Assembly: GCA_016786765.1 (NCBI GenBank)
Contig: JAEUUZ010000004.1
Coordinates: 105,311-169,310 of the forward strand
DNA length: 64,000 nt
Reading direction: 5' to 3'
From: Chitinophagales bacterium
Lineage (GTDB): Bacteria; Bacteroidota; Bacteroidia; Chitinophagales; LD1
The notes beneath the pieces were generated by a model, which had not been told where the DNA came from, ran no database searches, and was given only the letters and a program-made list of their open reading frames with translations. Each line of letters opens with the position of its first letter. Positions within the stretch are counted from its first letter, which is position 1. The position numbers were made by a program, and so were the translations under genes. Below, one piece after another: positions 35,094-49,478 of the stretch.

Positions 35094-35209
35094 AATGTTA
35101 TCCGAATGTTAACCTTTAAAGTTTTCTTAACAAAGTGAGTAAATTGTGGATATTCACTAACATACTTAACATTGGCATAACATTACTCCACATAAAATAC
35201 CCTAACATT
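35094..35209. promoter_or_regulatory. Candidate PhoB/PhoP-type operator: TAACATT direct repeats at 11-bp spacing in both orientations
   Basis: AATGTTA at 35094 and 35105; TAACATT at 35167 and 35178; extra copies at 35158 (TAACAT) and 35203. Confidence 0.55.
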
Positions 35210-35233
35210 GCATCAATAAATAATCTAAATAAA

Positions 35234-35881
35234 ATGAAACTAGAAAAACTACTAGCGTTCTTTATTCCAAAAGACAAAATTTTCTTTACGCTTTTTGAAA
35301 AAGCAGCAAACAACTTGGTTGATATTTCAACAGTATTTAATGAATTAGTAAACACACCGGCTGCTGATAAACGCATGGATTTGGTAAAAAAAATCGAGGA
35401 CTTAGAGCATGTTGGCGACTCGGTAACGCATGAAATTTTCACAGCGCTTAGCACCAATTTTATTACTCCGTTCGATAGAGAAGATATTCAGTATTTAGCT
35501 TCATCGCTTGATGATATTGCCGATTATATTGATGGTTCGGCTAAGCGATTGGTACTGTATAAAATTGATGAGTATTCGCAACCTATGCGACAATTGGCCG
35601 AAGTTATTTTTAAATCGGCTATAGAAATTAAAGCTGCAGTTGGCGAATTGAAAAGCTTGGAAAACAAACTCCGTATTCGTGAGGCATTGGTGCGTATCAA
35701 TAGTTTAGAAAATCATGCCGATGATATTTTTGATGGAGCTATCGCCAACCTTTTTGAAGAAGAAAAAGACGCAATCAAAATCATTAAACTAAAAGAGATT
35801 CTTTCAAACATGGAAACAGCAACCGATAAATGCGAGGATGTTGCGAATGTGATTGAAACGATTTTAATTAAAAACAGCTAA
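35234..35881 (+). CDS. DUF47 (PhoU-like) phosphate transport regulator
   Basis: IEDLEHVGD, FITPFDREDI, LENHADD, TDKCEDVA; precedes pit. Confidence 0.92.
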   Translation: MKLEKLLAFFIPKDKIFFTLFEKAANNLVDISTVFNELVNTPAADKRMDLVKKIEDLEHVGDSVTHEIFTALSTNFITPFDREDIQYLASSLDDIADYIDGSAKRLVLYKIDEYSQPMRQLAEVIFKSAIEIKAAVGELKSLENKLRIREALVRINSLENHADDIFDGAIANLFEEEKDAIKIIKLKEILSNMETATDKCEDVANVIETILIKNS

Positions 35882-35892
35882 ACGAATACAGC

Positions 35893-36978
35893 ATGACCTT
35901 ATTATTGTTTGTTATTTTTTTGGCACTCGCGTTCGACTACATTAATGGATTCCACGATGCGGCAAACTCTATTGCTACTGTAGTGTCCACTAAAGTACTT
36001 TCTCCTTTCCAGGCCGTGGTGTGGGCGGCTTTCTTTAATGCCGTGGTATTCTTCTTGTGTAAACACCATTTGTTAGGTTTCGAATTAAAAGTAGCCGACT
36101 CGGTTTCTAAAATTGTAAAAACTGAAGCCATAACGCTTGTGGTAATTGTAGCCGGATTACTAGCGGCTATTTTCTGGAACTTACTTACTTGGTATTATGG
36201 TATTCCAAGTAGTTCTTCGCATACCTTGATGGGCGGATTTGCCGGTGCTGCCATTGCCAAAGCAGGATTTGGAGTATTGGCTGATGTAGGCAAAATATAT
36301 ACCACGGTGGCGTTCATTTTCTTGGCGCCTCTAATAGGTATGATACTGGGCTACTTTATAGCCGTACTGATATTACACTTATTTAAACGATCCAATCCGC
36401 ATCGTGCTGAACGTATTTTCAAAAAATTGCAATTGGTATCGTCTGCGGCATTCAGCTTAGGACACGGAGCCAACGATGCACAAAAAGTAATGGGAATTAT
36501 TGCTGCGGCCTTAATGGTGTATGCGCACACCGTTGATGCGAGTATGATTCCGGCTTGGGCACAAGTAGATATCTTGCAAGAAATGAAGAACGGCAAAATG
36601 ATAAATAAAATCAGTCACATTCCGGATTGGGTACAAATTGCTTGTTTTACAGCCATTGGTTTAGGTACTTTAAGTGGAGGATGGAGAATCATCAAAACCA
36701 TGGGTACGAAAATTACAAAGGTTACACCTTTGGAAGGTGTTGCTGCTGAAACGGCCGGTGCCATTACGCTTTACGGAACGCAATTGTTAGGCATTCCGGT
36801 AAGTACTACGCACACCATTACCGGTTCAATTATTGGTGTGGGTGTCACCAAAGGCCTTTCAGCCGTTAAATGGGGTGTTACCATCAGCTTGCTTTGGGCT
36901 TGGGTATTAACTATTCCGGTATCGGCAGCCATGGGCGGAATTGCTTATTTGATACTCCGAATGTTTTTAGGCGCATAA
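35893..36978 (+). CDS. pit: Inorganic phosphate transporter (PiT family)
   Basis: NGFHDAANSIAT, GIPSSSSH, GHGANDAQK, GIPVSTTH. Confidence 0.95.
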   Translation: MTLLLFVIFLALAFDYINGFHDAANSIATVVSTKVLSPFQAVVWAAFFNAVVFFLCKHHLLGFELKVADSVSKIVKTEAITLVVIVAGLLAAIFWNLLTWYYGIPSSSSHTLMGGFAGAAIAKAGFGVLADVGKIYTTVAFIFLAPLIGMILGYFIAVLILHLFKRSNPHRAERIFKKLQLVSSAAFSLGHGANDAQKVMGIIAAALMVYAHTVDASMIPAWAQVDILQEMKNGKMINKISHIPDWVQIACFTAIGLGTLSGGWRIIKTMGTKITKVTPLEGVAAETAGAITLYGTQLLGIPVSTTHTITGSIIGVGVTKGLSAVKWGVTISLLWAWVLTIPVSAAMGGIAYLILRMFLGA

Positions 36979-39027: not shown

Positions 39028-40845
39028 TTATTTCGCTTTTTTGGTCTCGGCTATCCATTTGTCGACCAACTCTTCCAAAACAAGTAACGGCACTGCACCG
39101 TTCATCAGCACAACATTATGAAACCTTCGGATATCAAACTTATCGCCTAACTCTTTTTTCGCTTTTTCGCGCAGTTCCAATATTTTCAACATACCCACTT
39201 TGTAGCCGGTAGCCTGGCCGGGCCACAAGAAATAACGTTCTATTTCTTTTTGAATATCGCCAGGTGCATTAGCAGTATTCTGCAAGAAATAATCGATGGC
39301 TTGTTGACGTGTCCATTTTTTGGAATGAATTCCCACATCCACCACCAAACGTGCTGCACGGAAAATCTCCATACTTAATCTTCCAAAATCAGAATACGGA
39401 TCTTGATACAACCCTACTTCTTTTGGAATCAATTCTGAGTACAATGCCCACCCTTCAATATAAGCTGTATTGCCGTCATATCGTCTGAATTTAGGAATTG
39501 CCTTCAGTTCTTGCGCCAACGCAATTTGCATGTGATGCCCCGGAATGCCTTCGTGATAACACAAAGCTTCCATTTGATAACGTGGCTCATCATTCATGTT
39601 ATATAAGTTCACATAAAACCGTCCCGGACGAGATCCATCCTCTGCCGGATTTTCGTAAAAAGCTCCACCGGCCGATTTTTCACGGAATTTTTCTACAGCC
39701 ATTACCACAATAGGCGCATGTGGTTCGTTATCAAAAAGTTTATCGAGATAGTTCTTCTTGAAAGAATGAATGTAACTGTTCGACTCGGCCAAAATTTCTT
39801 CTCGCCCTTTCGCATCGTTGCTGTACTTGAATTGCGGATCGGTGCGCACAAATTCAAAAAATGCTTGTAGCGAATCCGACTTGAAATTCACCTTCTTCAT
39901 AATCTGGCGCATTTCATTCTGAATACGCGCTACTTCTTTTACACCGGTAGCATAAATTTCATCTGCCTTTTTATCGGTTGTGGTTGTACGTTTCAAACAA
40001 TAATTGTAATAATCAGCCCCATCGGGTAAACTCCATACACCATTATCGGCTGTTTGCTTTTTCTCCAATGCAGTCCAATACGCTAATAAATCTTCATAGG
40101 CTTTTTTGACTGACGTAGACAGTATCTGTTGCGCTTCAGCTTTCATTTTTGCCTGCTCCTCTTTTGGAATAAAATCTGTATTTATTTTTGCTGAAAAATC
40201 GGTTAATAAAATATTGGCATCATCGGTTTTACTTAAGCCGGCAATAAAGGATTTTAAATCGTCTGATACATACGGGAAGGTAAATTTAGGCGGCAAAACG
40301 CCAATGGCTTCACGCGATTTCAACTGCGCAATTACCTGTGCAAAAACGCGTTCAATTTTCGACAAACGACTTAAATACGCTTTAGCATCCGATACGCTAT
40401 CGATACGATGAATATTAATTAAAAAAGAAGGAATGTCGTTATGCTCTCCGCCCATTTGTGTAATGGAATAATAATGCTTGCGCCACATCGAGTCTTCTTT
40501 CGAAAGTTTCACCGACTCTTCAAACAAACGAATACTCAACTTCGTTTGCTCGTCCAACCCTTGTATATCGAATTGCTTTAGCGAATCTAAAGTAGCACGC
40601 GAAAAAGCCAACTCGGCAAAATAAGCCGAATCGGTACGCTCCGACCAACTGTCGTAACCTGTCTTTAACCCTAAATTAGCTGCAAACTCAGGATTTCGAG
40701 CCACGCTTTCGTCAAAACGCTTGTCTAAAAATGCATTCACTTTTTGTGAGTTTGCTGTAATTTCATCAGCAGAATAATGTTTTGCAAATCTGTCGCACGA
40801 CACCATTACACCTCCGCAAACCAAAGCCATTATGAATATACGCAT
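39028..40845 (-). CDS. DUF885 family lipoprotein (putative metallopeptidase)
   Basis: Lipobox MVSC, HEGIPGHH, YIEGWALYSE, RAARLVVD, PGQATGY. Confidence 0.9.
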   Translation of the reverse strand: MRIFIMALVCGGVMVSCDRFAKHYSADEITANSQKVNAFLDKRFDESVARNPEFAANLGLKTGYDSWSERTDSAYFAELAFSRATLDSLKQFDIQGLDEQTKLSIRLFEESVKLSKEDSMWRKHYYSITQMGGEHNDIPSFLINIHRIDSVSDAKAYLSRLSKIERVFAQVIAQLKSREAIGVLPPKFTFPYVSDDLKSFIAGLSKTDDANILLTDFSAKINTDFIPKEEQAKMKAEAQQILSTSVKKAYEDLLAYWTALEKKQTADNGVWSLPDGADYYNYCLKRTTTTDKKADEIYATGVKEVARIQNEMRQIMKKVNFKSDSLQAFFEFVRTDPQFKYSNDAKGREEILAESNSYIHSFKKNYLDKLFDNEPHAPIVVMAVEKFREKSAGGAFYENPAEDGSRPGRFYVNLYNMNDEPRYQMEALCYHEGIPGHHMQIALAQELKAIPKFRRYDGNTAYIEGWALYSELIPKEVGLYQDPYSDFGRLSMEIFRAARLVVDVGIHSKKWTRQQAIDYFLQNTANAPGDIQKEIERYFLWPGQATGYKVGMLKILELREKAKKELGDKFDIRRFHNVVLMNGAVPLLVLEELVDKWIAETKKAK

Positions 40846-41013: not shown

Positions 41014-42414
41014 ATGGGTAAGAATTTACACATCCTTTTGCTTATTTGGATTGCACTCATAAGTACTTTTTCATTCGCCCAATCAGCATCAAAAATAAAA
41101 GATGCTTATGGCAGAACAGTAATACTCCATGGCTTGAATACCAGCAGCAGTGCGAAAGGTGAAGGAACAGAACATTCCGATCATCAACCTTGGATTAAAG
41201 CATCGGATGTAGAACGAGAGTATCATTCGTTTGGCTTCAATGCTGTTCGTTATCTGATTTTTTGGGGCGCCATTGAACCGGAAAAAGATAAATATGATGA
41301 AGCTTATTTAGCCAAAGTGAAAGAGCGAGTGGAGTGGTACACCAGTCGGAAAATGTATGTTATCTTCGACATGCATCAAGATGTGTACGGTTATGGTGTA
41401 GGCGGGAATGGTGCTCCGGTATGGGCTTCCAGTTATTCTAAAACAAAAAACTTAGTACCCGACAAATGGCCTTGGTGGATGCAAAACATGGAACCTACTG
41501 TAGTAAAATCGTATGTGCAATTTTTCAAATACAAAAAGAAAAAAGAACTGCAAGACCATTACATAAAGGCTTGGCTGAAAGTGGTCAATATGTTTAAAGA
41601 CAATCCATACGTGATTGGCTACGATTTAATGAACGAACCACACGGTGGCAAATTAGTCAAAACTTTAGCCGGTGGATTTGAACGTAAATGGTTGTCGGCT
41701 ATGTACAAACGATTAATTCCGGCCATTCGAAAGGAAGACACATCGCGCTATATCTTTTTTGAACCCAGGTCGTTTGGTGTAAACTTCGGCATGAAATCCC
41801 ATTTACCGATAGTGAAAGATACCATTGTCAACAAATTGGTTTATGCGCCACACTGTTATCTCACTTTTGTGGATGTAGGTGGCGACTATAAGAAGAAACA
41901 CGAAAACAATTTGAAAAAGTGGTTTAAATACCGAGAGCAAGAAACCGCTAAACATCAATCGGGCTTGTTGCTTGGAGAGTTTGGCTTATCTCCGGGCAAA
42001 AAAGATTTCGACAAATATTTGAATGCTATTTTTTCGCGGCTTGATGAAGCGCAAGGCTCATGGACCTATTGGTCGAGCGATTTAGGTGGTTGGGGGCCGC
42101 TCAATGGCGATCGTTCACCCTCTCCTATTCTTAACGAATTATTACGCATATACCCACAAGCAGTTGCCGGTGAATTGTTGAGCTACACCTATGAACCTTC
42201 AGCGCATAAGTTTACCATGCACATGATGAGCGATACCACTATTCATGCCCCTACAATTATTTCAATTCCTCTTCAAAAATACAGCGCTTTTCCTGTTGTA
42301 AAAATCACCAGCGAATCGCCTTTCGAGATGGATAAAGACAGTAAAAACAACACCCTTGTTTTAACGGTAAAAGAACATCGAAAATTAGTAGACATTGAAA
42401 TTGCCATACCCTAA
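41014..42414 (+). CDS. GH5 endoglycoceramidase-like glycoside hydrolase
   Basis: DAYGRTVILHGLN, DMHQDVY, acid/base MNEP, YAPHCY, nucleophile GEFG, C-terminal RIYPQAVAG beta-sandwich. Confidence 0.82.
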   Translation: MGKNLHILLLIWIALISTFSFAQSASKIKDAYGRTVILHGLNTSSSAKGEGTEHSDHQPWIKASDVEREYHSFGFNAVRYLIFWGAIEPEKDKYDEAYLAKVKERVEWYTSRKMYVIFDMHQDVYGYGVGGNGAPVWASSYSKTKNLVPDKWPWWMQNMEPTVVKSYVQFFKYKKKKELQDHYIKAWLKVVNMFKDNPYVIGYDLMNEPHGGKLVKTLAGGFERKWLSAMYKRLIPAIRKEDTSRYIFFEPRSFGVNFGMKSHLPIVKDTIVNKLVYAPHCYLTFVDVGGDYKKKHENNLKKWFKYREQETAKHQSGLLLGEFGLSPGKKDFDKYLNAIFSRLDEAQGSWTYWSSDLGGWGPLNGDRSPSPILNELLRIYPQAVAGELLSYTYEPSAHKFTMHMMSDTTIHAPTIISIPLQKYSAFPVVKITSESPFEMDKDSKNNTLVLTVKEHRKLVDIEIAIP

Positions 42415-42553
42415 AAAACAATGCAGTTAACAGGCCCTTAACTTCGCCCCACAAGGATTCCACTGTTTGAACGCTACTAAACCTTTCGGGGCAATATTCT
42501 GTTAATATTTAGGCTATTATTTCAGAACCATTTTTTTATATATATTCACGAAT

Positions 42554-45500
42554 ATGAAACAACTACTACTCACATTTCTAGCCTTATTGTCTGTGGCTAT
42601 TCAAGCACAGGAAATTTCCGGAGTATTGTTCGATAAAAGAACAGGTGAAACGCTGATTGCTGCATCGGTATCCATCAAAGGAACTACCACCGGAGTACAA
42701 ACCGATATAGATGGAAAATTCAGTTTTAAGGCTACCCAAAGTCCGCCTTACACCCTAGTTTTCTCGTACATTGGTTACGAACCTTTTGAAGTGAATATTA
42801 CGAGCATAGAACAAGCTAAAAAACCATTTGTGGTGCGTTTAAGTGAAAGCACAAAAATAATGAAGGATGTTGAAATTGTGGATTCCCGAATCACGGAAAA
42901 ACAAAAGGAAAATCCGCTGACCATCGAAAGTATGGGACTACAGCAAATCAAGCAAACCGCTTCTTCAACATTCTACGAAGGGTTGAGTACTTTGAAAGGT
43001 GTGGATATGACCACCGCTTCGTTAGGGTTTGTGGTGATCAACACCCGTGGTTTCAACAGCACATCGCCTGTACGTTCGTTACAATTGTTAGATGGTTGCG
43101 ATAATCAAGCTCCGGGTTTGAATTTTAGTGTGGGGAATTTTGCAGGCGCATCTGAAATCGACATCCAAAAGGTAGACTTGATTGTTGGAGCTAGTTCACC
43201 ATTATACGGACCGAATGCCTTTAACGGAGTTTTAGCAATGCAAACAAAAAGTCCGTTCTACTACCAAGGACTAACGGTTTTCTTGAAAGGTGCCGAACGC
43301 AATATGTTCGATGGTGCAATTCGTTGGGCAAAAGCATTTAAGAACAAAGCCGGTGAGGATAAATTTGCGTTCAAAATCGGGTTATCTTATTTAAGAGCTT
43401 ACGACTGGGAGGCGGATAATTACAGTAGATCTGCAGCCATTAACTCAGTTCAACCCGAGACAAATCCTGGAGGTTATGATGCAGTTAACCGATATGGTGA
43501 TGAGTTAAAAAATGCAGGTGAAAACAAATACAACACCGGAAGAAAAGATATTGCGACAAACTTAGGTTTAGGGCAGTTCCACAGAACAGGCTATCTGGAA
43601 AAAGACTTAGTGGATTACAACATCACGAACATTAAAGCAAACACTTCATTACATTATAAAATCACCAACAAAATTGAAGCGAAATTAGGCTATAATTTTG
43701 GCTATGGAACAACAGTATACCAAGGCGATAACCGTTATAGTTTAAGAGGGTTGCAAATTCACCAAGTGCGCTTAGAAGTTAGTCAGCCTGATAAATTTTA
43801 TGTACGTGCCTACATGACTGCTGAAGATGCGGGAACATCTTATGATGCAGTATTTACTGCACTAAGAATGCAAGAGTATGTAAAGTCTGATAATAAATGG
43901 CAACAGGACTATCAAAAATATTGGACCGATAATATTATGAATAAAGGCGGAGCACTTGGAGCAGGACCAATCTTCCAACTACCTGGAATGCCTCAGAGCG
44001 TTTACACAAATCCTTCAATATGGCTTAACCCAGACACGAATGTTTTTAATACAACATATGCTCAAGCATTAAGTGTACTGAATAGCAATCCGGATTCACT
44101 TAAAGCATGGCACAATCAAGCTAGAGCCTTTGCGGACAATGGTAGACTAATACCGGGTACGGCTGCATATGATTCAATTAAAAATATTATTACAAACAGA
44201 AATTTGAACCAAGGAGGCACACGCTTTTTCGACAAAAGTAAAATGATGCATGTGCAAGCGGAGTACAAATGGGACATCAAGAAAAAAGGACAAGAAAAAA
44301 ACTGGTTTGATTTGACTACCGGTGCAAGTTTCAGAATGTTTTTCCCGTATTCATTAGGTACTATTTTCCAAGATACCTTTACCCGCAGATATCAATTGGA
44401 TTCTTTAGGTAAACCTGTGCAAGACATTAACGGCAACAATATTGTGCTCGATAGTACTTATAACAAAATTAGAAATTGGGAAATTGGCGCCTATTTCAGC
44501 GCTACCCGCAAATTCAGTTTTGGCGAGGGACATTCAATTACTCCCACACTAACGGTGCGTTTCGACCGCAATCAAAACTTTGCTTGGAAGCGAAAAGACG
44601 GTACTTGGGATCCTATTATTACACCGGCATTTTCGTTGGTATATTCCTACAAAGGCAATCACTCTGTTCGTCTATCCTATTCGTCAGGAGTAAGAAATCC
44701 AACACTTCAAGATCAGTATTTATATTACAATGTTGGTCGAGCCATTTTGATTGGAAATTTGAATGGTGTTGATTCAGTGGTTTCCATTCCAGACCTCACT
44801 TCGTATATCGATAAAAACGGGAATCGCGCAGCTATCGACTCGTTGAAATTCTTTAATGTAGACGGAGTTCGTCCGGAGCGTGTACAAACCTTTGAAATTG
44901 GCTATCGCGGCTTGTTTGCCAAAAAAGTGTATATCGATGCTAGTGCCTATGTAAGCTTGTACAAAAATTTCTTAGGCTATAAACTCGGTGCAACATTTTC
45001 CGATAATAAAGTATTTGAAGAAGGCACTATTCGTCCATTTCAAGTATATCGTATAGCAGCTAATGCTAAAGACTTAGTAATGACATATGGTGCTTCTATA
45101 GGCGTAAGTTATTACTTCATTAAAAACTATGCTTTAACCGGAAACTACTCGTGGAATGTATTGAACAGAATGGGATCCAACGATTCTATTATTCCGGCAT
45201 TCAACACACCTGAGCATAAATTCAATGTGGGGATTAGCGGTTACGACATTAAAATCGGGAATCAAAAAGGCTTTGGCTTTAATATCAATTACAAATGGAT
45301 TCAAGGCTTTAAATTTGAAGGCTCGCCACAGTTTACAGGCGACATCCCAACCTATTCTTTGTTAGATGCGCAAATTAGTTGGGATGTACAAAAAATCTTC
45401 ACCACCTTTAAATTGGGCGGAAGCAACTTAATTTCTAAACGCAATTTTCAAGCCTATGGTGGACCGGGAATCGGACGTATGATTTACGGATCGGTGCTTT

Positions 45501-45565
45501 TAAATATCAGTTGCGATACCTTTAAAAGTTGGACAAAAAAAGGAAAAGATAAACCAACCGAATAG
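42554..45565 (+). CDS. TonB-dependent receptor with N-terminal carboxypeptidase-regulatory-like domain
   Basis: TGETLIAASV..TDIDGKF, plug INTRGF..DG.DN, GASSPLYGPNAFNG, C-terminal barrel strands. Confidence 0.92.
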   Translation: MKQLLLTFLALLSVAIQAQEISGVLFDKRTGETLIAASVSIKGTTTGVQTDIDGKFSFKATQSPPYTLVFSYIGYEPFEVNITSIEQAKKPFVVRLSESTKIMKDVEIVDSRITEKQKENPLTIESMGLQQIKQTASSTFYEGLSTLKGVDMTTASLGFVVINTRGFNSTSPVRSLQLLDGCDNQAPGLNFSVGNFAGASEIDIQKVDLIVGASSPLYGPNAFNGVLAMQTKSPFYYQGLTVFLKGAERNMFDGAIRWAKAFKNKAGEDKFAFKIGLSYLRAYDWEADNYSRSAAINSVQPETNPGGYDAVNRYGDELKNAGENKYNTGRKDIATNLGLGQFHRTGYLEKDLVDYNITNIKANTSLHYKITNKIEAKLGYNFGYGTTVYQGDNRYSLRGLQIHQVRLEVSQPDKFYVRAYMTAEDAGTSYDAVFTALRMQEYVKSDNKWQQDYQKYWTDNIMNKGGALGAGPIFQLPGMPQSVYTNPSIWLNPDTNVFNTTYAQALSVLNSNPDSLKAWHNQARAFADNGRLIPGTAAYDSIKNIITNRNLNQGGTRFFDKSKMMHVQAEYKWDIKKKGQEKNWFDLTTGASFRMFFPYSLGTIFQDTFTRRYQLDSLGKPVQDINGNNIVLDSTYNKIRNWEIGAYFSATRKFSFGEGHSITPTLTVRFDRNQNFAWKRKDGTWDPIITPAFSLVYSYKGNHSVRLSYSSGVRNPTLQDQYLYYNVGRAILIGNLNGVDSVVSIPDLTSYIDKNGNRAAIDSLKFFNVDGVRPERVQTFEIGYRGLFAKKVYIDASAYVSLYKNFLGYKLGATFSDNKVFEEGTIRPFQVYRIAANAKDLVMTYGASIGVSYYFIKNYALTGNYSWNVLNRMGSNDSIIPAFNTPEHKFNVGISGYDIKIGNQKGFGFNINYKWIQGFKFEGSPQFTGDIPTYSLLDAQISWDVQKIFTTFKLGGSNLISKRNFQAYGGPGIGRMIYGSVLLNISCDTFKSWTKKGKDKPTE

Positions 45566-45656
45566 TCTAAAAACGTAAAATGAAATGTTATAAATAGTGT
45601 GAAAGTTTTGTCGGCTTAGAATTCTATTGTAGATTTAAGAACCAAAACTAAACAAC

Positions 45657-47105
45657 ATGAATAAAAACTTTCTACTCGTTATTCTAATGATAGCTTGTAC
45701 GTCTACCCTCTTCGGGCAGCGCTATCTTACACCGCAATTCAGCACGGTAAAAGTAACTAAAAACGTAAAATACGGAGCTAACTTAGGTTACAACTCATCC
45801 TTTCTTTCATCCGAAGATTTATTAATGGATGTTTACGAACCGGATGGCGACACCGCAACAAATCGTCCGGTTATTATCCTCGGCCATGCAGGTTCTTATT
45901 TATCACTTTATGCATGGGGAAACAAAGATCAATATAGTGTTGTAGAATTATGCAACCGCTTTGCAAAACTAGGCTATGTAGCCGTTTCAATCGATTACCG
46001 ATTAGGTTGGTCTGCCGGTTCAACAGATGCCGAAACCCGCGAAAAAACGATTATCAATGCGGTATATCGCGCTATGCAAGATTTCAAAACATGTATTCGT
46101 TACTTTAGAAAGGATGCAAGTACAACCAACACATGGAAAACAAATCCTTGTAAAATCTTTGTTGGAGGTACCAACTCTGGTGGTTACTCGGCTTTGGCTG
46201 TAGCCAACTTAAATAAAACTTCTGAGTTGTATGGAGTTAAGTTCCTTGATTCAAACGGAGATCCGTATATCGACCAAACTAAAACAGGTGATTTCAACGG
46301 TTTTGGCGGCACACAAAATGTATATAATCATCCGGGCTATAGCTCTGAAGCAAGTGCAGTTTTAGCACTTGGAGCTGCAACCGGAGATTCTACTTGGGTT
46401 GAAGCTGGAGAAATTCCGGTAGTAGCCTTATCGGGAGTAGAGGAAACTACAACACCTTATAACACTGCCATTGTAATTACAGGTAGCGGAACAGCTATTA
46501 TTGTTGTGAGCGGTGCAGGTGATTTTATGCCACGCACCGAGCGTTTAGGCAATAACGATGTGTTTAAAGCAGCATCTTTACCACAAGGCCCGCCAAACAA
46601 AAATGGAGCCGGAGCAGTAACACAATCCATAGAAGGGTTGTATCCATTATACGGAGCTAAATTTGAACCATGGAGTTGGTATGATGGCGCTCAACCTATT
46701 GGCGATCCGAGTTTGAACGTTGGAGCATCGCAAATAAAAGGTTTATTGTATATCGATACTATTATGAGTTACACCGCGCCTCGTTTCTTCGAAATTATCA
46801 AAAACACTACTGCTTGTCAGATTACAGCAGGTATTGACGATAACCAATCGGAAACAAAAGTAGGCTTTACCACTGTTCCGAATCCATCGAGCAGCACTAT
46901 TACTATCTTTAGTTCTTCTGTAGCAACAGCCATTACTTCTGCAACATTAATCGATTTTAATGGCAGAATTGTGCGTTCTATTGAAAACAATAAAAGCCAT
47001 TATGCTGTGTTACCGGTAGAAGATTTGGCGAATGGAATGTATGCTGTAGAAATTAAAACGGCTGATGGCATTCAATCTGTGAAAAAAGTGATAGTACAAC
47101 ATTAA
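45657..47105 (+). CDS. T9SS-secreted alpha/beta-hydrolase-fold protein, probably catalytically inactive
   Basis: LMDVYEP, VSIDYRLG, HSL-like elbow but GGTNSGG, CTD VPNPSS...NGMYAVEI...KKVIVQH. Confidence 0.82.
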   Translation: MNKNFLLVILMIACTSTLFGQRYLTPQFSTVKVTKNVKYGANLGYNSSFLSSEDLLMDVYEPDGDTATNRPVIILGHAGSYLSLYAWGNKDQYSVVELCNRFAKLGYVAVSIDYRLGWSAGSTDAETREKTIINAVYRAMQDFKTCIRYFRKDASTTNTWKTNPCKIFVGGTNSGGYSALAVANLNKTSELYGVKFLDSNGDPYIDQTKTGDFNGFGGTQNVYNHPGYSSEASAVLALGAATGDSTWVEAGEIPVVALSGVEETTTPYNTAIVITGSGTAIIVVSGAGDFMPRTERLGNNDVFKAASLPQGPPNKNGAGAVTQSIEGLYPLYGAKFEPWSWYDGAQPIGDPSLNVGASQIKGLLYIDTIMSYTAPRFFEIIKNTTACQITAGIDDNQSETKVGFTTVPNPSSSTITIFSSSVATAITSATLIDFNGRIVRSIENNKSHYAVLPVEDLANGMYAVEIKTADGIQSVKKVIVQH

Positions 47106-47121
47106 AAAACATCTAACTAAT

Positions 47122-47155
47122 TAAAAAAAGGAGAGCAATTGCTCTCCTTTTTTTA
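47122..47155. terminator. Bidirectional terminator (perfect 34-bp palindrome)
   Basis: TAAAAAAAGGAGAGCAATTGCTCTCCTTTTTTTA. Confidence 0.85.
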
Positions 47156-47586
47156 TGTCTAAAGCACAAGAATACCTAGTACAGTTAATTTAAAGCCGTA
47201 TGCGGAATAGTATCGGTAAATAGTTCTTATGGGTATTTGAAATGCACATTAAACCCTCTTGCAATATAAGGGGATACTATGTTACAGAAATACGCTATAG
47301 CTATGATGGAAATAAATATTGCATACGCGTTGTTAAACATGACGATGCAGTTAGCGTTTAGTATGTTTCCTCGAAGGAGAAAATTGCTTCAGAAAACGTA
47401 TGCTTAATATGCATTTGTCCCTCGTTTAAGCTTCCGTTATACAGCCAAATTTATCGCTTTAAGGCTTTCAGTACTGCGTAAACTTCCCCCATCAAACACA
47501 ACTGCTATGTTTTGCGCTGGCATTCGCAACTGCTAACATATAAGAATAGCTTTTAAATCAGGCCTAAATTCCATCGTGATGGGCAT

Positions 47587-47620
47587 AAAAAAACGGTTGC
47601 CTCTTTCGAAGCAACCGTTT
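47587..47620 (-). terminator. Terminator after the DUF4397 gene
   Basis: AAACGGTTGC-N10-GCAACCGTTT with a U-tract on the minus strand. Confidence 0.8.
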
Positions 47621-47639: not shown

Positions 47640-49478
47640 TTATTTCAACACGTTGAATTTGTACAACGAAGTTTTTGTTTCGCTTACCACACGGGCAATG
47701 TACAATCCATTTTGAAGATCGCGAATATCTTCAGTTAAAGCAACTGTTTTGTTGCCAAAAGTAGAGTTCACTACATTTTTAACTACACGTCCGTTCATAT
47801 CCAAAATGTCGATAGCAACGTTACTTGTTTCTTTCACATCGAAAGCCATTACAATTTCAGATGAAGCCGGATTAGGGAACATACGGAATTGCATATCAGC
47901 CAATGAAGGATCGTTGATGCTGGTTGACGTTGAAACTACAGTATCTTGCAATGGAGACATAAAGCTCAACGGTCCGTTAGGTATAGCTAAGTATAACCCG
48001 AATTTCTTTCCGTTTTTGTTTGCTGCCGAATCAACAAAACCAGTAGCTACTAAAGTGATACCAGCACCGTCAATAGCCCCTAGTGGCACTAAATACGACT
48101 TGTAGATTGCTCCGCCCGGTAATTTCAAATCAACAATTACAGTACCTAAAGAAGTTGGTAAAGCTGTGTTACCACTGATGTTTGCTTTCTGATATTGACC
48201 ATAAGACAAACCTGAAATTAAACTCAAACCACCTGCAGAAGGAACGGTAACACTCACTGTAGGAGCGTCAGTAGCTGCGTGGAATACATTCACAACACCT
48301 GTTCCTGCAGGAGAAGTTGTTACAAAAGGTTTGTCGATATAAGCGTTTGCTAAAATGCTTTTTCCATCAGGATTAGCTGTAAAGCCCGAAGTACTACTAA
48401 CACCTGCAATAACACCAACACGTGCAGTATCGTTCAAGAACAGGTTAACCGATAATGATTTAGTTAAACTATCGTTAGCATGAATATCGATATCGTAGTG
48501 GAAATCTTGGATAAAGGCACCTGATTGGAAACGTTGCAAATAATCCAATTTCAAGAATTGTTTTACTCCATTCACATACAACTCGATTTTTTTCAATAAT
48601 GGATCAGCAGAAGCATGGATAATTTCTGTTAAACCTCCCAATTTCTCAGCAGGCAACTCTACTGGAGTAATCGCTGAATTTCCCGGAGTAGAAGCATCCG
48701 TAACAAAAGCCAAAACTTTTGCAGTATTTGTAGTACCTGTTCCAGTTGTATCGGCAAAACCTGAAGCTACAATGAAAGCTGCTTTACCACCTAGTGTTCT
48801 AAGGGCATCGCCATTGGCTTTATAGAAAGGATTGGTTTGCGCTTGTCCGTTAGGGATAATGTGAATACGTCTTGCACTAGCGGCAACACCTGTGTGCGCT
48901 GTTACATCTTTGTACAATGCTTTACCCACTAATACATCACGAGCCGGAGCTTGGATAGTAGTTACAAAGCTTTGAACATAAACCGAATCAGCATCAATAA
49001 TACCATGATGTAGGGCAACCTGCGCTTGATTTGGATTAGATGATGAAAACTGAACACCGCTGTTAATAAGAATCAAATCAGCTGCATTGCTAACACCCGA
49101 TGGGTTCGTTTTAGCTGCCAATAATGATGGCGTTGCTAATCCTGTAGCAATCATAATGTTGTTTCCTGTAGGGATTACTGAAAACGTTTTAGAGAATAAA
49201 TCCGGATCAGAAGATGCTGTACTGGTAGAAGACTTTAAGTGAACGACTAACGTAGCACCCGGAATTGGCACTGCCGGAATAGTATAGAAGTAACCCGATT
49301 GATACGTTAAATTATCAACGGCTTTCAAGTATTGAGATGCAATAGGCACTTCCACCCAAACATCCACATTGGCTAAAGCCGGATCCGGACTGTTATGGAC
49401 AACAAGTAGGCTGCCTTGTGCACTTGCGAAAGTGGCACCCAACACAGCAAGACTGAGGGTAAGGAGAATTTTTTTCAT
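47640..49478 (-). CDS. T9SS-secreted protein with about four DUF4397-like repeats
   Basis: VHNSPDPALANVDVWV, HHGIIDA, IHASADP..IELYVNG, FHAATDAPTVSV; CTD MFPNPAS..NGLYIARV. Confidence 0.82.
   Translation of the reverse strand: MKKILLTLSLAVLGATFASAQGSLLVVHNSPDPALANVDVWVEVPIASQYLKAVDNLTYQSGYFYTIPAVPIPGATLVVHLKSSTSTASSDPDLFSKTFSVIPTGNNIMIATGLATPSLLAAKTNPSGVSNAADLILINSGVQFSSSNPNQAQVALHHGIIDADSVYVQSFVTTIQAPARDVLVGKALYKDVTAHTGVAASARRIHIIPNGQAQTNPFYKANGDALRTLGGKAAFIVASGFADTTGTGTTNTAKVLAFVTDASTPGNSAITPVELPAEKLGGLTEIIHASADPLLKKIELYVNGVKQFLKLDYLQRFQSGAFIQDFHYDIDIHANDSLTKSLSVNLFLNDTARVGVIAGVSSTSGFTANPDGKSILANAYIDKPFVTTSPAGTGVVNVFHAATDAPTVSVTVPSAGGLSLISGLSYGQYQKANISGNTALPTSLGTVIVDLKLPGGAIYKSYLVPLGAIDGAGITLVATGFVDSAANKNGKKFGLYLAIPNGPLSFMSPLQDTVVSTSTSINDPSLADMQFRMFPNPASSEIVMAFDVKETSNVAIDILDMNGRVVKNVVNSTFGNKTVALTEDIRDLQNGLYIARVVSETKTSLYKFNVLK

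Follow-up and report, generated by a model that had tools for sequence, protein, structure and literature searches.

The window analysed here is a stretch of 64,000 nucleotides from a Chitinophagales bacterium (GenBank assembly GCA_016786765.1, contig JAEUUZ010000004.1, positions 105,311 to 169,310 of the forward strand). It contains a row of three genes that encode a GH5 glycoside hydrolase, a TonB-dependent transporter and a protein of predicted alpha/beta-hydrolase fold with a tail for export by type IX secretion (the T9SS). A first-pass annotation made from the sequence alone had assigned all three genes to a system for the capture of glycolipids, with the last protein read as a secreted dead lipase. 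Comparison with related genomes showed that the conserved unit at this locus is a two-gene module consisting of the transporter and the hydrolase-fold protein, and that this module is widespread in Bacteroidia. The three open reading frames (ORFs) were confirmed on the + strand, with lengths of 466, 1003 and 482 aa, and the features of the locus are listed below with the evidence used for each.

41014..42414, + strand: GH5 glycoside hydrolase, endoglycoceramidase-like, 466 aa, a neighbour and not a conserved part of the module (PF00150, PF18564, alignment to 2osw)
42415..42553, + strand: spacer between the GH5 and transporter genes, 139 nt, without a terminator-like fold (fold z = 0.08; no Rfam match at the gathering score)
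42554..45565, + strand: TonB-dependent transporter, 1003 aa (Pfam domains, orthologue alignment)
45607..45637, + strand: promoter-like motif TTTG-19 nt-TAGATTTA before the hydrolase-fold gene, with TTTG at 45607-45610 and TAGATTTA at 45630-45637 (sequence reading, spacer comparison)
45657..47105, + strand: putative T9SS-exported pseudo-esterase, 482 aa (PF20434, PF18962, TIGR04183, family alignments)
46164..46184, + strand: nucleophile elbow GGTNSGG, aa 170-176, with Asn173 replacing the catalytic Ser (phmmer and profile alignments to 1jji, 6nkf and 5ao9)
46443..46445, + strand: Glu263, the retained catalytic-acid position (aligned with the HGDxD Asp of 6nkf and of paralogues from the same genome)
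46662..46664, + strand: Phe336, replacing the catalytic His (GADHVPW or GYIHEPW in paralogues versus GAKFEPW here)
47122..47155, + strand: intrinsic terminator ending the gene row (fold -20.7 kcal/mol, z = -5.86)

Conservation of the transporter and hydrolase-fold pair

The transporter consists of a signal peptide, a CarbopepD_reg_2-type N-terminal domain (aa 21-106), a plug (aa 117-226; PF07715, 1.1e-09) and a large barrel (PF00593, 2.4e-22). Between the N-terminal domain and the plug lies a VEIxD stretch, TonB-box-like when read by eye, which is kept in the consensus of the transporter family. The protein scored below the SusC model TIGR04056 (102 bits versus 368.25) and aligned only to model positions 2-416 of 981. 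No SusD-family match was found among 13 flanking proteins (ORFs 30564-58248; E-value cut-off 1e-4, three retried at 1e-3), in agreement with the earlier description of a TonB receptor without a SusD partner, and no SusD-family gene recurred across 140 related loci. A profile constructed from 42 orthologues matched solved structures only at aa 8-237 (SusC homolog 8aa4), and because the matches end at aa 237 the barrel is without a close solved relative. Orthologues from across the class are 44-52% identical to the transporter of the window and share more than 150 invariant columns, the plug included, a degree of conservation that fits one defined substrate.

Within the family of the organism (f1), orthologues of both genes were present in the same 22 of 25 genomes (own genome included), and neither orthologue was found in G017, G020 and G023, which are 95-97% complete. 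The two genes were adjacent and on the same strand in 17 of these 22 genomes. The exceptions were G008 (opposite strands, with 3.6 kb between the genes), G012 (a distance of 38 kb), G024 (different contigs), G013, in which the hydrolase gene adjoins a paralogous transporter, and G003, for which the arrangement cannot be told.

At the level of the class the pair was surveyed from both sides. A hydrolase profile (A1) built from 52 family representatives matched 188 of 301 Bacteroidia genomes at an E-value of 1e-40 or below, a tally that takes in weaker canonical esterases as well as the unpublished genomes G206 and G128. The sample taken from it comprised the best match of each of 60 genomes, spread over family codes among the strong matches. 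At 43 of these 60 loci a transporter of the family (score above 1000 bits against a model made from the relatives) lay within 400 nt on the same strand, at one further locus the gap was 416 nt, and one locus was cut by a contig end. The transporter alignment (A2) was searched against the species collection and returned at least 594 relatives, of which the best 80 loci were examined: a hydrolase-fold gene was adjacent in 54 and absent in 12, and 14 loci were cut at a contig end, which gives 54 of 66 readable loci. All loci found by way of the transporter came from metagenome-assembled genomes labelled Chitinophagales, Flavobacteriales, Sphingobacteriales, Saprospiraceae and similar.

The gene order was mostly transporter followed by hydrolase and was reversed in four loci (L037, L053, L021 and L022), so that it is the adjacency that is conserved and not one fixed operon form. 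No third conserved gene was found, the next commonest neighbour cluster being present in 10 of the 140 loci, and no PorV-like or FadL-like barrel was linked to the pair among the neighbour clusters of these loci. The functional tie between the secreted pseudo-hydrolase and the TonB receptor, as the first-pass annotation had proposed it, is borne out by the adjacency counts in all three samples. The same annotation had pointed to lipolytic-fold neighbours of such receptors in Flavobacteria; the linkage itself holds and is class-wide in Bacteroidia, and the organism is labelled Chitinophagales, not Flavobacteria.

Some loci carry additional T9SS-tailed genes near the pair or near paralogous transporters. 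In three loci of one genus the pair is followed by a T9SS-tailed protein of 545-566 aa with a weak match to GDSL lipases (29.4 bits, cut-off 32.9; L014 10717-12417, L016 4357-5991, L018 11333-12973). The own genome has a paralogous transporter of approximately 34% identity (blastp) on contig C66 (6558-9398 in locus L023, 2006-12925), which has before it, on the same strand, a T9SS protein of 1470 aa with SprB repeats and CHU_C, and Mfd (TRCF) after it. In other genomes paralogous transporters of the family (L020 9139-12558, L026 8370-11321 and L027 3496-6324) adjoin a T9SS-tailed C25 gingipain-type peptidase, a T9SS-tailed S15 X-Pro dipeptidyl peptidase and a lysyl-oxidase-like protein, respectively.

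The secreted partner: fold, residues, export and transcription

The partner of the transporter has a signal peptide, a predicted alpha/beta-hydrolase fold (approximately aa 22-395) and a type A C-terminal sorting domain (aa 408-480). The fold assignment draws on a match to the N-terminal half of the BD-FAE family (PF20434, 2e-10, aa 57-206) and on a family profile that matched the solved structures 6nkf (9.9e-12) and 5ao9 (1.2e-09); a search of the ESM Atlas returned BD-FAE/carboxylesterase clusters only. The nearest families are BD-FAE and HSL-type esterases, among which carbohydrate and feruloyl/acetyl esterases figure as much as lipases, and the earlier label "lipase" is not supported. Used as query against a library clustered at 50% identity, the partner returned 4039 matches at an E-value of 0.001 or below and 477 at 1e-30 or below. 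In their source records these relatives are mostly named "T9SS type A sorting domain-containing protein" or "hypothetical protein", and three bear generic names (predicted esterase, dienelactone hydrolase).

The sorting domain was recognised by both PF18962 (1.2e-10; 42 versus 27 bits) and TIGR04183 (36.5 versus 23 bits), and the own genome encodes T9SS machinery, with PorU (1251 versus 420 bits) and PorV (411 versus 250) side by side on contig C17. Among 99 members of the pseudo-esterase family that adjoin a transporter, the sorting domain with its PNP and G.Y motifs could be aligned in 96, and two of the three exceptions appear truncated at contig ends. A possible lipobox around Cys14 was considered and rejected, as the Cys is not kept in the orthologues.

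Alignment to solved esterases placed Asn173 of the GGTNSGG motif where GGDSAGG or GDSSGG has the nucleophile Ser. The flanks of the nucleophile elbow align without gaps on both sides, and a one-residue shift of the register is therefore not favoured. The protein of the window and its orthologues have Asn at the place of the Ser, Glu263 at that of the acid and Phe336 at that of the His, and the oxyanion motif and the elbow glycines are kept. Since Glu263 is retained, two of the three triad residues are gone and not the whole triad; the earlier statement that this T9SS-secreted hydrolase lacks its catalytic residues thus holds for the Ser and the His, as does the T9SS tail, and fails for the acid. 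Three paralogues in the same genome keep the GxSAG motif, the HGDxD acid and the His, and the one on contig C46 is 42% identical to the partner. Two of these three active-type paralogues also end in a matching C-terminal tail. Conserved inserts (GDFxGFGG, GNN and NPxxS...YIDTI) are an additional feature of the pseudo-esterase family. Its conserved positions include His77, Arg115, Trp118, Asp142, Ser/Thr174, Asp/Glu263 and Asp367.

The residues at the catalytic positions were counted in the 99 transporter-adjacent members:

Nucleophile column: Gly 85, Asn 11, Ser 3
Residue after the nucleophile: Thr 52, Ser 44, Ala 3
Acid column: Asp 88, Glu 9, Asn 2
His column: Gly 32, Ser 24, Ala 23, Phe 10, other residues or gaps 10; His 0
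Oxyanion-motif His: kept in 91

In 33 homologues that do not adjoin such a transporter, Ser occupies the nucleophile column in 12. Judged from these alignments, the catalytic residues were lost as a trait of the family, and the loss goes together with linkage to the transporter.

Variation in copy number and length was also seen in the family. A tandem second pseudo-esterase copy follows the transporter in L040, L042, L043 and L058, and L046 and L049 have as second gene a homologue that is shorter (approximately 430-440 aa) and scores lower. In L089 (6983-10420) and L090 (6950-10822) the pseudo-esterase domain opens longer proteins (1145 and 1290 aa), with no such transporter adjoining.

The spacer before the hydrolase-fold gene carries the promoter-like motif that had been noticed in the first pass. 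It is present in the window as described, and the strict pattern occurs in three of 11 orthologous spacers (the window, L001 and L002); by eye, several of the others show a TAnnTT(T/A)AG-like box just before the hydrolase gene. The pattern would correspond to the promoter consensus of Bacteroidota, and the hydrolase-fold gene probably has its own promoter. Public RNA-library runs from wastewater and bioreactor samples contain parts of the window, with a best word share of 0.36. Contigs from four runs in three studies were aligned to it; such contigs are no proof of transcription, start sites or levels, and gaps in their coverage carry no meaning. Parts of all three genes are covered by these contigs, one of which (45190-45663) spans the 3' end of the transporter gene and the whole spacer, and another starts at 45654. 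In all four runs the word depth was 2-10 over the transporter gene and 16-60 over the hydrolase gene. The depth difference and the start at 45654 are a weak hint that fits read-through from the transporter gene and an extra promoter of the partner gene alike.

Putative function of the pair and competing explanations

We consider it somewhat probable (about 0.55) that the pair is a SusD-independent uptake module in which the pseudo-esterase would act as the extracellular ligand-binding partner of the transporter. The partner would be exported by Sec and subsequently by the T9SS, and would either sit tethered at the cell surface after cleavage or sortase processing of its C-terminal domain (CTD) or be released. 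With the Ser (replaced by Asn here and by Gly in most relatives) and the His lost, hydrolysis is presumably gone, and the protein may instead take up a small ligand in what was once the active-site pocket and pass it to the transporter, which would import it with TonB energy in a SusD-like or hemophore-like manner. A promoter of its own before the partner gene would yield more binder than channel. Descent from BD-FAE/HSL-type esterases suggests as ligand an ester-like or acyl- or aromatic-acid-bearing small molecule, and not specifically a lipid; nothing in the analysis pointed to a lipid or glycolipid, or to the lipid counterpart of a polysaccharide utilisation locus (PUL) that had been envisaged earlier. 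The chances are about even that the module represents a widespread, previously undescribed uptake class of Bacteroidia, in which a T9SS-secreted pseudo-esterase would be the capture protein of its own transporter for one defined small molecule. Searches of the full-text literature (subscription literature lies outside their coverage) found no published description of such a transporter and pseudo-esterase pair.

The module was compared with known systems that have a receptor and a binding partner. As in SusC/SusD (RagA/RagB), the gene for a TonB-dependent outer-membrane barrel whose N-terminal domain is of the CarbopepD_reg type lies beside that for an extracellular partner presumed to bind the substrate. 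Unlike SusC, the barrel stays below the TIGR04056 cut-off and has no solved SusC relative beyond aa 8-237, and the partner is not a SusD-fold lipoprotein but a T9SS-exported protein of putative alpha/beta-hydrolase fold. Glycan-degrading genes, too, are not linked to the module: of the elements of a PUL, SusD is missing, and the GH5 as the sole CAZyme is linked in no more than one genus. In the hemophore and carrier systems HasA/HasR, HmuY/HmuR and BtuG/BtuB a dedicated extracellular binder is encoded beside a TonB-dependent receptor. The module resembles them in having the binder gene beside the receptor gene and possibly extra transcription of the binder. The stoichiometry of hemophore binder and receptor is taken up in one part of PMC9331221, for heme receptors that are unrelated to this transporter. 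General scans found neither HasA nor HmuY nor other hemophore or carrier families among the family and structure matches of the partner, which also differs from these binders in leaving the cell by way of a T9SS CTD.

With BD-FAE/HSL-type esterases (PF20434; 6nkf, 5ao9 and 1jji) and with the paralogues of its own genome the pseudo-esterase shares the predicted fold, the His of the oxyanion motif, the elbow glycines and the acid; it differs from them in the replacement of Ser by Asn or Gly and of His by Phe, Gly, Ser or Ala, in its extra inserts and in its linkage to a transporter. Non-catalytic binding modules of alpha/beta-hydrolase fold are known from neuroligins, in which the Ser is replaced by Gly, and from the gibberellin receptor GID1. 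The pseudo-esterase profile matches neuroligins weakly (6.8e-07); these proteins are eukaryotic and have other partners, and the likeness is one of principle only. The pair is a variation on the known theme of a receptor with a binding partner and belongs to neither the SusCD nor the hemophore families.

If the proposed role in uptake is true, the pair would add a third solution to those of the SusD lipoproteins and the hemophores, and would be a bacterial case of an enzyme fold recruited as a binding protein that feeds a receptor. TonB-dependent transporters without SusD are abundant in environmental Bacteroidota, and their substrates and partners are mostly not known. The transporter family described here has a fixed partner of unexpected origin, a putatively T9SS-exported dead esterase, and the pair offers a testable two-protein route to a new nutrient imported by bacteria of freshwater and wastewater.

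Several points weigh against ligand capture by the partner. Conserved adjacency is evidence of a functional link and not of its nature. The other gene of the pair was missing within the fetched flanks in 12 of the 66 readable transporter loci and in 16 of the 60 hydrolase loci (with one more cut), the two class-wide samples overlap in genomes, and related loci are not independent. The RNA-library contigs prove neither transcription nor relative levels of the two genes. Furthermore, the conserved Ser/Thr beside the lost nucleophile and the retained acid leave room for a non-canonical enzyme.

In this last case the partner would still be an enzyme with a non-canonical site (e.g., Ser/Thr174 and Asp/Glu263 with another base), which would free extracellularly what the transporter imports, comparable to the surface enzymes of PULs or to gingipains with RagAB. 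Of the 99 members, 96 have a Ser or Thr after the lost nucleophile and 97 retain the acid, and the T9SS-tailed true hydrolases beside paralogous transporters of the family (C25 in L020, S15 in L026) and the GDSL-like proteins after the pair in L014, L016 and L018 point in the same direction; these neighbours also fit an origin of the module from a secreted enzyme plus an importer of its product. Against catalysis stand the Gly at the tip of the elbow in 85 of the 99 members, a His column without a single His, and the elbow flanks that align to solved esterases without gaps. In addition, paralogues with a full triad in the same genome make the loss in the partner look like a change of function. 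Overall, we regard retained activity of this kind as unlikely, though it is the best of the alternatives.

That the barrel serves T9SS cargo as a place of docking or anchoring, or as an export helper, in the manner of the PorP/SprF-type barrels of type B cargo, appears improbable. Transporters of the family and their paralogues do repeatedly adjoin T9SS-tailed proteins of various kinds. However, the full plug, the TonB-box-like stretch and the invariant columns that extend into the plug are the anatomy of an active transporter, and the complete and highly conserved plug makes a mere anchor less likely. The CTD of the partner is of type A, a type that needs no private barrel, and no PorV-like barrel is linked to the pair.

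The GH5 gene bears on the explanation proposed in the first pass. Its product matches the Pfam cellulase family (PF00150, 1.5e-35, aa 43-355) and a C-terminal beta-sandwich domain (PF18564, 2.6e-08), and its closest solved structure is the endoglycoceramidase (EGCase) II of Rhodococcus (2osw, 1.7e-65, aligned over aa 22-421). The motifs DMHQDVY, LMNEP and LGEFGL align to 2osw, where the NEP and GEFG motifs are identical; we take the Glu of NEP to be the acid/base and the Glu of GEFG to be the nucleophile in that structure. Both catalytic Glu motifs and the beta-sandwich are thus shared with EGCase II, whereas the score against the curated EGCase I model NF051847 is far under its cut-off (125.6 bits versus 700). 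A Sec signal peptide without Cys, and hence without a lipobox, and the lack of a Por_Secre_tail agree with the export signals read in the first pass. The protein is an EGCase-like GH5 enzyme, a candidate for the GH5_28-like group, and is probably periplasmic.

GH5 matches were surveyed in 41 genomes, comprising the own genome (G000), six of the same genus, 18 more of the same family and 16 from elsewhere in the order. A match was found in 11 of them, and it adjoins the transporter only in G000, G001 and G004, which belong to one genus and share the gene order over the whole flanks. In the other eight the gene is not beside the transporter: in G011 it lies approximately 17.6 kb beyond the pair, in G007 the distance to the transporter is approximately 245 kb, and in G003, G012, G024 and G027 it is on another contig. 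The genomes G017 and G020 (96-97% complete) keep the GH5 at 60-63% identity, and the queries found neither a transporter nor a hydrolase orthologue in them. The GH5 orthologue of G012 (C16:178786-180104, L034) is broken by two internal TAA stops and lies in two frames, while the two genes of the pair, 38 kb apart, are intact. In four genomes (L028-L031) the GH5 orthologue is divergent to genes for T9SS surface giants, 1275-1600 aa long, which carry either SprB repeats/CHU_C or Ig repeats.

The GH5 is not part of the module but an independent enzyme that is an upstream neighbour of the pair only in one genus. The first-pass annotation had proposed to check whether relatives keep both an EGCase and a pseudo-esterase beside the transporter; the pseudo-esterase is kept and the EGCase is not. 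A three-gene glycolipid system, in which a glycolipid would be brought to the transporter by the secreted dead lipase and then cleaved by the EGCase-like GH5 in the periplasm, has in its favour the common orientation of the three genes without a terminator-like fold between them in the own genome, the similarity of the GH5 to EGCase II and the same arrangement in G001 and G004, but is very improbable given that these are genomes of one genus with common flanks, that the GH5 is infrequent among the relatives, mostly apart from the transporter and retained where the pair was not found, that its copy in G012 is broken although both genes of the pair are intact there, that it elsewhere adjoins T9SS giants, and that no third gene recurs in the class-wide loci. 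The proposed uptake module of two genes hereby replaces an attractive but unsupported "lipid PUL" annotation.

Terminator, spacers and flanking genes

The gene row is closed by one strong terminator, as had been described. It consists of an A-run, a GGAGAGC/GCUCUCC stem and a U-run, and none of 200 shuffled sequences folded as well. Because of its symmetry (A-run, hairpin, U-run) it could work in both directions. It was absent from the list of a simple consensus terminator scan and was recognised by reading the sequence. Neither of the two spacers within the row folds more stably than shuffled versions of itself (42415-42553, z = 0.08; the 91 nt of 45566-45656, z = -1.61). A riboswitch search of the window and nine related loci found none by the transporter genes; the matches were SAM-II and SRP RNAs only, several kb off the pair. 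In all three proteins the predicted signal cleavage would leave Gln as the first mature residue, which is typical of Bacteroidota.

The genes next to the row on either side lie on the - strand. The upstream one encodes a DUF885 protein (39028-40845). A PhoU-like (DUF47) and PHO4 phosphate transporter pair (35135-36978) is also found upstream, and by conservation neither it nor the DUF885 gene is related to the module. Downstream, and convergent to the module, a gene at 47640-49478 encodes a T9SS-tailed protein of 612 aa without any other family match. An orthologue of the 612-aa protein also adjoins the pair in G001 and G004, and in L012 (G009) it follows the pair on the same strand, with 630 aa and a weak match to DUF4397. 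The spacer at 47156-47600, which separates two convergent terminators by approximately 430 bp, has no ORFs other than some of 26-42 aa, and among 12 relatives searched it matched G004 alone, which is the nearest relative (86% identity).

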